This document shows positions 37,287 through 37,321 of a DNA stretch of 64,000 bases, one piece after another (position 1 is the stretch's first letter; every line of letters begins with the position of its first letter). Under the pieces are notes generated by a model. The model saw nothing but the letters and a program-made list of their open reading frames with translations, did not search any database and was not told the origin of the DNA. Made by a program: the position numbers and the translations under genes. The DNA comes from Escherichia coli (lineage in GTDB: Bacteria > Pseudomonadota > Gammaproteobacteria > Enterobacterales > Enterobacteriaceae), in the NCBI RefSeq assembly GCF_030013205.1, contig NZ_CP122648.1. One strand, given 5' to 3'.

Positions 37287-37321
37287 CGTACTGTCAGAGA
37301 AATCAGTGCTCTGACAGTACG
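37287..37321. other. Perfect 13-bp inverted repeat with 9-nt spacer between yncL and the 3' end of patD
   Basis: cgtactgtcagag-aaatcagtg-ctctgacagtacg seen directly; no adjoining T-run. Confidence 0.6.

Follow-up and report, generated by a model that had tools for sequence, protein, structure and literature searches.

Introduction

Dar and Sorek (PMC6061677) found that Rho-dependent transcripts end, at steady state, directly after stable stem-loops that lack U tracts. In the class that they described, rut sites lie directly downstream of the stem-loop, and the diffuse primary ends are shortened by PNPase and RNase II as far as the stem. The Salmonella yncL orthologue was first catalogued as an sRNA, STnc1110, which is sigma-S-dependent and runs at approximately 195 nt on Northern blots, where an extra 120-nt band is also seen. 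In Escherichia coli, patD and yncL are listed as a convergent pair with overlapping transcription (PMC12288877).

Here we analyze an inverted repeat between yncL and patD in a 64,000-nucleotide stretch of E. coli DNA (contig NZ_CP122648.1, assembly GCF_030013205.1), referred to as the window. The repeat probably encodes the protective 3′ stem-loop of an approximately 180-nt stationary-phase yncL transcript that is terminated by Rho and trimmed by exonucleases. The site is already on record as the primary 3′ terminus of yncL in published supplementary tables, and its kind has already been described.

Results

A perfect 13-bp inverted repeat between yncL and patD

The gene names yncL and patD are those given by RefSeq for K-12 and for E. 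coli genomes that match the window. The window is oriented opposite to K-12, and positions were converted as K-12 coordinate = 1517002 + (37361 − window coordinate), a relation verified on the K-12 sequence. The features that define the locus are the following.

37169 to 37264, plus strand: yncL coding sequence, 31-aa stress-response membrane protein, Pfam PF28073 (ORF list, RefSeq annotation)
37287 to 37299, plus strand: 5′ arm of the stem, CGTACTGTCAGAG
37300 to 37308, plus strand: 9-nt loop, AAATCAGTG, polymorphic in E. coli
37309 to 37321, plus strand: 3′ arm of the stem, CTCTGACAGTACG, whose changes compensate those of the 5′ arm
37361 to 38785, minus strand: patD, gamma-aminobutyraldehyde dehydrogenase, convergent with yncL (ORF list, RefSeq annotation)

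An earlier note on this DNA had described the site as a perfect 13-bp inverted repeat with nine nucleotides between the arms, and this description is exact: the arms at 37287–37299 and 37309–37321 are 100% complementary. The repeat lies in the 96-nt intergenic gap between yncL and patD, starting 22 nt after the yncL stop codon, and the patD 3′ UTR enters it 39 nt past its own stop codon. Folded as RNA, the hairpin has a predicted energy of −20.5 kcal/mol on the plus strand and −19.7 kcal/mol on the minus strand, with z-scores of −6.4 and −5.5, and 7 of its 13 pairs are G-C.

The same note had called the palindrome unusually long for an intergenic site, which holds within the window, where it is the sole perfect inverted repeat with arms of at least 13 bp and a loop of 3 to 20 nt. 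Dinucleotide-shuffled sequences contain a mean of 0.015 such sites, and only 1.5% of the shuffles have any. Scaled to the whole genome, this rate corresponds to approximately one such inverted repeat expected by chance, and the reality of the hairpin rests more on its conservation and covariation (see below). Other perfect inverted repeats in the window, with arms of at least 11 bp, are found at 12472–12499, 15844–15871, 24393–24418, and 44790–44830. Those at 12472–12499 and 15844–15871 are flanked by A and T runs and resemble bidirectional intrinsic terminators. The repeat at 44790–44830 is apparently the hairpin antisense to yncJ printed in the table of a TRS study (PMC10687069), as judged by sequence, with the coordinates unconverted.

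The T run of a classic terminator, which had been noted as missing on either strand, is indeed absent after the stem on both strands (plus-strand tail CAAGATCATCTC, minus-strand tail TGCTGCGTGCAA). On the plus strand, the 9 nt that follow the stem include two U, with a longest run of two (tail CAAGAUCAUCUC), and no A tract precedes the stem (upstream sequence GCACGCAGCA). We took a canonical intrinsic terminator to be a G+C-rich stem followed by at least five U within approximately 8 nt; neither strand has this arrangement (minus-strand tail UGCUGCGUGCAA), and a terminator pattern scan did not call the hairpin. A promoter-like sequence overlapping the 3′ arm, CTGACA-16-CATACT at 37311–37338, was discarded, its 9 of 12 matches being the chance rate.

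The hairpin marks the 3′ end of the yncL mRNA

Published 3′-end maps place the end of the yncL transcript directly after the stem.

37133 to 37139, plus strand: CTATACA, candidate sigma-S-like −10 element read from the sequence
37324 to 37329, plus strand: steady-state 3′ ends of the yncL mRNA, at K-12 1517039 (stem +3, Term-seq) and K-12 1517034/35 (stem +7/+8, TRS)

In the Term-seq data of Adams et al. 2021 (PMC7815308, Supplementary file 1), the dominant 3′ end is at K-12 1517039 on the minus strand, which is window position 37324, with 75,265 and 536,300 reads in two growth conditions. Judged by their position in the file, these conditions are probably LB at OD 0.4 and LB at OD 2.0. In the TRS study (PMC10687069), the yncL terminus classed as "Primary" has its dominant position at 1517034/35, corresponding to window 37328/9, and the table prints the same hairpin at −21.6 kcal/mol, its longest run of U being 2. 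The dominant steady-state ends thus lie at +3 and +7/+8, within a few nucleotides of a stable stem-loop (−20.5 kcal/mol).

The candidate −10 element CTATACA is located approximately 30 nt upstream of the yncL start codon, and a transcript running from it to 37324 would be an RNA of approximately 180 nt. Based on the 3′-end maps, the approximately 195-nt STnc1110 RNA and this predicted length, the hairpin is the 3′ end of a short, abundant, monocistronic yncL mRNA. A sigma-S-like −10 element fits the sigma-S dependence of STnc1110, and also the Term-seq counts, which are sevenfold higher in the sample that is probably from stationary phase. One database protein annotated as YncL (P0032, 82 aa) is a stop-loss variant whose frame runs through the hairpin into antisense patD.

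The proposal in the earlier note that the palindrome is an RNA hairpin, possibly for RNA processing, at the 3′ end of both genes stands for yncL, whose ends map 3 to 8 nt past the stem, and is not supported for patD. No patD-sense 3′ end at K-12 15170xx is among the entries listed (PMC7815308, PMC10687069), although patD may have been little expressed in those conditions, and the hairpin stays with yncL where patD is elsewhere. The complementary hairpin in the patD 3′ UTR may nevertheless stabilize or terminate the patD mRNA.

A Rho-sensitive region follows the hairpin

Sequence features and a published Rho termination region lie downstream of the stem on the yncL strand.

37322 to 37360, plus strand: pyrimidine-rich, C-rich, G-poor tract (C 11, G 3), candidate start of a rut site
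37325 to 37337 and 37354 to 37365, plus strand: conserved blocks GATCATCTCATAC and ATTATCCTTAAT, shared by Escherichia and Citrobacter whatever gene comes next
37560 to 37660, plus strand: published Rho termination region, centered at K-12 1516753 (minus strand), window approximately 37610 (PMC7815308, Supplementary file 2)

The Rho region has a Rho score of 16.6 (p = 5e-21) and lies antisense to patD, approximately 286 nt past the mapped 3′ end (PMC7815308). Reads upstream and downstream were 220 and 9 without bicyclomycin and 106 and 72 with bicyclomycin, counted in 800-nt windows and including reads that might begin elsewhere than at yncL (PMC7815308). Since the score derives from 800-nt windows, the position of the region is approximate, and the bicyclomycin-induced reads could originate at antisense promoters within patD rather than at yncL.

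The ratio of C to G is between 1.08 and 2.75 in all twelve 50-nt windows over the 600 nt downstream of the stem, and the C-over-G excess of the first 39 nt is only at the 5% tail of the distribution for the window. The pyrimidine-rich tract is kept in character, and partly in sequence, between Escherichia and Citrobacter, with the block GATCATCTCATAC reading GATCTTCCCAC in Citrobacter. The two conserved blocks may belong to a Rho loading site or may constitute a promoter-like element of the opposite strand.

The earlier note had named simple termination seen by Term-seq as a result that would refute it, and the precise 3′ end on record is in essence that result. Still, with no U tract at the stem and Rho sensitivity further on, Rho termination plus trimming fits better than classic intrinsic termination.

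The hairpin is present once per genome

Segments of 59 nt and 35 nt were compared by blastn with 5,426 complete E. coli genomes, and the hairpin was found at one locus per genome in 5,411 of them; the "2 places" per genome that blastn reports are the palindrome matching its own opposite strand. The site therefore belongs to no repeat family, the other condition that had been set against the first reading, and an Rfam search of positions 36500–38000 at E values up to 10 gave no match at the hairpin and two chance-level matches elsewhere. Further copies of the half-site were also sought: allowing up to two mismatches, the window contains three matches, which are the two arms and one match at chance level. 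No paper found by full-text literature search for the arm sequences prints them in its main text.

All 35 nt are exact in 4,304 of 5,412 E. coli records. A loop allele, AAATCAACT, which differs from AAATCAGTG by three adjacent changes, is carried by 1,090 of the 5,412 and adds one inner A-U pair, giving a 14-bp stem with a 7-nt loop. This allele looks ancestral in E. coli, because other Escherichia lineages carry it too. Both arms are unchanged in at least 5,394 of the 5,412 records. One-position differences occur in 16 records, and the single one inspected has its change in the loop; a U-G wobble together with a terminal mismatch characterizes one rare allele. The record NZ_CM173443.1, from the laboratory stock LAM_HS, matches only the patD-proximal 68 nt of a 321-nt query, and so seems to be without yncL and its upstream DNA, with the hairpin region kept.

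RNA structure is conserved across yncL loci

To compare the site beyond E. coli, yncL loci were gathered by cluster look-up, by representative search, and from contigs with the exact protein; they cover other Escherichia lineages, E. albertii, four Citrobacter species, Superficieibacter, and two more distant groups. A genome scan with PatD mostly retrieved loci that have no yncL, from Pseudomonas and other taxa; yncL is present in 5 of the 80 loci listed. In every yncL locus recovered, ortT and yncL form a divergent pair and a stable hairpin lies 20 to 45 nt past the yncL stop codon. The genes downstream of the hairpin differ, and include patD, IS1, a same-strand HTH gene, a DUF421 gene, an AraC-like gene, and a CatB-like acetyltransferase gene split by IS3. 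The hairpin is kept even where no convergent gene is close, namely next to IS1 in E. albertii, next to a same-strand HTH gene in C. tructae, and, in EC11-type E. coli, before a stretch of approximately 350 unannotated nt.

The hairpins of Escherichia and Citrobacter can be aligned as homologs. Among 10 distinct sequences from the two genera, 89% of the alignment cells in the stem are paired and 6 of 15 pairs change on both sides; none of 500 shuffles reaches the observed values, and sliding the partner by one to three columns reduces pairing to 29–51%. Loop lengths range between 4 and 9 nt, and the conserved cores of the two half-sites are offset by 18, 19, 20, or 21 nt. The compensatory changes, together with the variable loop and spacing, indicate that it is an RNA structure and not a protein operator that is conserved. 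G-U pairs are present in the yncL sense, where the antisense RNA would carry C-A mismatches, which weakly favors the yncL strand as the functional one.

More distant yncL loci, among them L100 and L101–L103 with homologs of 63–70% identity, have different 3′ hairpins. Those of Superficieibacter and of the locus L100 are unrelated hairpins at the same position, mostly without a U tract: L100 has an 11-bp stem with none (positions 1630–1670), while in two Superficieibacter sp. loci the tail is partly U-rich. The loci L101–L103, which may be from Klebsiella, have a canonical bidirectional intrinsic terminator, AAAAAAGCAGCC-TTGA-AGGGCTGCTTTTTT (positions 1597–1660). Judged from these sequences, the mode of 3′-end formation has apparently switched within the yncL family.

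The adjacency of yncL and patD derives from a deletion

The arrangement downstream of the hairpin was compared between window positions 37338–37366 and the loci L006 (3440–6064) and L011 (3928–6250).

37360 to 37366, no strand assigned: CTTAATG (CATTAAG in the patD sense), microhomology at the deletion junction, identified by comparison with EC11-type E. coli and Citrobacter

In EC11-type E. coli approximately 2.7 kb separates the hairpin from patD, including the CatB-like acetyltransferase gene split by IS3, and there a separate short hairpin, with a few U after it, belongs to patD. The corresponding position in Citrobacter youngae is occupied by a gene for an MFS transporter and an AraC-like gene. 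On this comparison, the adjacency of yncL and patD in the window, as in K-12, is secondary and derives from a deletion. The sequences meet at CATTAAG by the patD stop codon, and the whole 39-nt patD 3′ UTR, with the hairpin, consequently comes from the block downstream of yncL.

Discussion

The hairpin at 37287–37321 is best explained by read-through, Rho termination, and trimming, because its features match those of the class of Dar and Sorek. RNA polymerase would mostly transcribe past the hairpin; Rho would load on the untranslated, C-rich and G-poor RNA antisense to patD and terminate transcription within a few hundred nucleotides; PNPase and RNase II would then trim the tail back until blocked by the 13-bp stem, leaving the ends at +3 to +8; and the stem would thereafter shield the yncL mRNA from more 3′-to-5′ decay. 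For yncL itself, we infer the Rho step and the trimming step.

A non-canonical intrinsic terminator, in which the strong hairpin, maybe with NusA or NusG, releases the polymerase at +3 to +8 without a U tract and possibly in both directions, is a doubtful alternative. It would account for a precise and very abundant 3′ end adjoining a stem of −20 kcal/mol, the TRS ends at +7/+8 are at the usual distance of intrinsic release, and the true intrinsic terminator in the distant L101–L103 lineage, being canonical, gives hairpin-dependent termination a precedent at this position. However, hairpins that lack a U tract are poor terminators for E. coli RNA polymerase, and there are at most two consecutive U on the plus strand and practically none on the minus strand; the strong Rho-sensitive read-through signal downstream on the same strand and the reported overlap of the patD and yncL transcripts also argue against release at the hairpin. 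We consider it unlikely that the polymerases of yncL and patD meet where the nascent hairpin dictates and release each other there without Rho or a U tract, in the manner of a collision-type bidirectional terminator. The two genes converge on a 96-nt gap, the symmetrical hairpin is as stable on one strand as on the other, and patD is presumably also induced in stationary phase. Furthermore, the pair is listed among overlapping convergent transcripts (PMC12288877), and this mechanism is on record for convergent E. coli gene pairs with terminators of non-intrinsic appearance (bioRxiv 10.1101/2022.10.23.513370). Against collision, the hairpin is kept in E. albertii, C. tructae, and EC11-type E. 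coli with no convergent gene near, the adjacency to patD is a secondary deletion, no patD-sense 3′ end at the hairpin is among the entries listed in the two end maps (PMC7815308, PMC10687069), and the class is defined as Rho-independent, yet a Rho-sensitive region follows the yncL hairpin.

Processing by RNase III, either in the hairpin or in the duplex formed by the yncL/patD overlap (an excludon), is very unlikely. The pair appears in the published E. coli "excludome", the yncL mRNA was among those whose level shifted on tiling arrays of mutants in RNase E or RNase III, and STnc1110 has its extra 120-nt band; but typical RNase III substrates are approximately 20 bp, longer than the 13-bp stem, and the mapped 3′ ends are outside the stem, with none within it. 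The suggestion in the earlier note that the palindrome is an operator for a dimeric regulator is extremely improbable, despite the perfect dyad, the fairly well conserved core half-site CTG(T/G)CAGAG, and the outer bases TACTGT/ACAGTA that resemble LexA half-sites. A dimeric protein needs conserved sequence at fixed spacing, whereas the half-sites are offset by anything between 18 and 21 nt around a loop of 4 to 9 nt, the changes are compensatory rather than conservative (six pairs on both sides), and Superficieibacter, L100, and L101–L103 have unrelated hairpins at the same position; in addition, the window holds no convincing extra half-site at up to two mismatches, and the site is at the 3′ ends of both genes rather than at a promoter. 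A LexA (SOS) box was rejected specifically: such a box requires CTG-N10-CAG, the site is CTG-N21-CAG, and E. albertii has CAGT...ACTG, so that CTGT is lost. A dispersed repeat of the REP/BIME kind, or a mobile-element remnant, has next to no probability. REP elements are intergenic palindromes, 3′ stabilizers, and partly Rho-dependent terminators, but each of 5,411 E. coli genomes carries the site at a single locus, and it has no second copy in the window and no Rfam match, and is at the orthologous position in Citrobacter.

The site has small significance beyond annotation, as a clean and well-conserved case of a 3′-end stem-loop that lacks a U tract and sits on an mRNA probably terminated by Rho. 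For practical purposes, the yncL transcript ends at window 37324–37329, and deletions or tags placed there would be expected to alter mRNA stability; studies of yncL, ortT, or patD should also take into account that yncL read-through would run antisense into patD. The owner of the hairpin is a small stress protein whose Salmonella transcript once passed for an sRNA. The locus illustrates that an operator is not the only explanation for a long, perfect palindrome separating convergent genes, and that a gene can inherit the 3′ end of its neighbor, patD having gained the hairpin by way of the deletion. It is quite unlikely that the hairpin and the conserved blocks GATCTTCNCAC and ATTATCCTTAAT form a regulated 3′-end module, for example, a site for a ProQ-type chaperone or a tunable Rho entry, rather than a passive stabilizer. 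If they did, the module would set how far the strongly induced stationary-phase yncL transcript runs antisense into patD or other downstream DNA, and the induction of a small membrane protein would be coupled to the silencing of putrescine catabolism.

Among described systems, REP elements (bioRxiv 10.64898/2026.03.23.713779) are similar in being intergenic palindromes whose transcribed hairpin blocks exonucleases; the yncL hairpin differs in being single-copy, unrelated in sequence, and orthologously kept with yncL, whereas the location of REP elements varies among strains. Canonical intrinsic terminators share a stem-loop of similar length and energy, 20 to 30 nt past the stop codon, that sets the mRNA 3′ end, but the yncL hairpin has neither a U tract (longest run 2) nor an A tract, and only 7 of its 13 pairs are G-C. 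The bidirectional terminators described by SEnd-seq and in collision studies also involve a convergent pair with one shared symmetrical hairpin that does not look intrinsic; the yncL hairpin, in contrast, predates the convergence, persists without it, and is followed by a Rho-sensitive region. Salmonella STnc1110 is an orthologous, discrete RNA of approximately 195 nt, which implies a defined 3′ end similarly far from the stop codon. The closest match is the class of Dar and Sorek, with which the site shares the precise end after a stem-loop, the absence of a U or A tract, the excess of C over G downstream, and probably the Rho-sensitive read-through further on. In not being a REP element the yncL hairpin is like 76% of that class, and we find no difference in kind, the Rho dependence of yncL being a regional measure.
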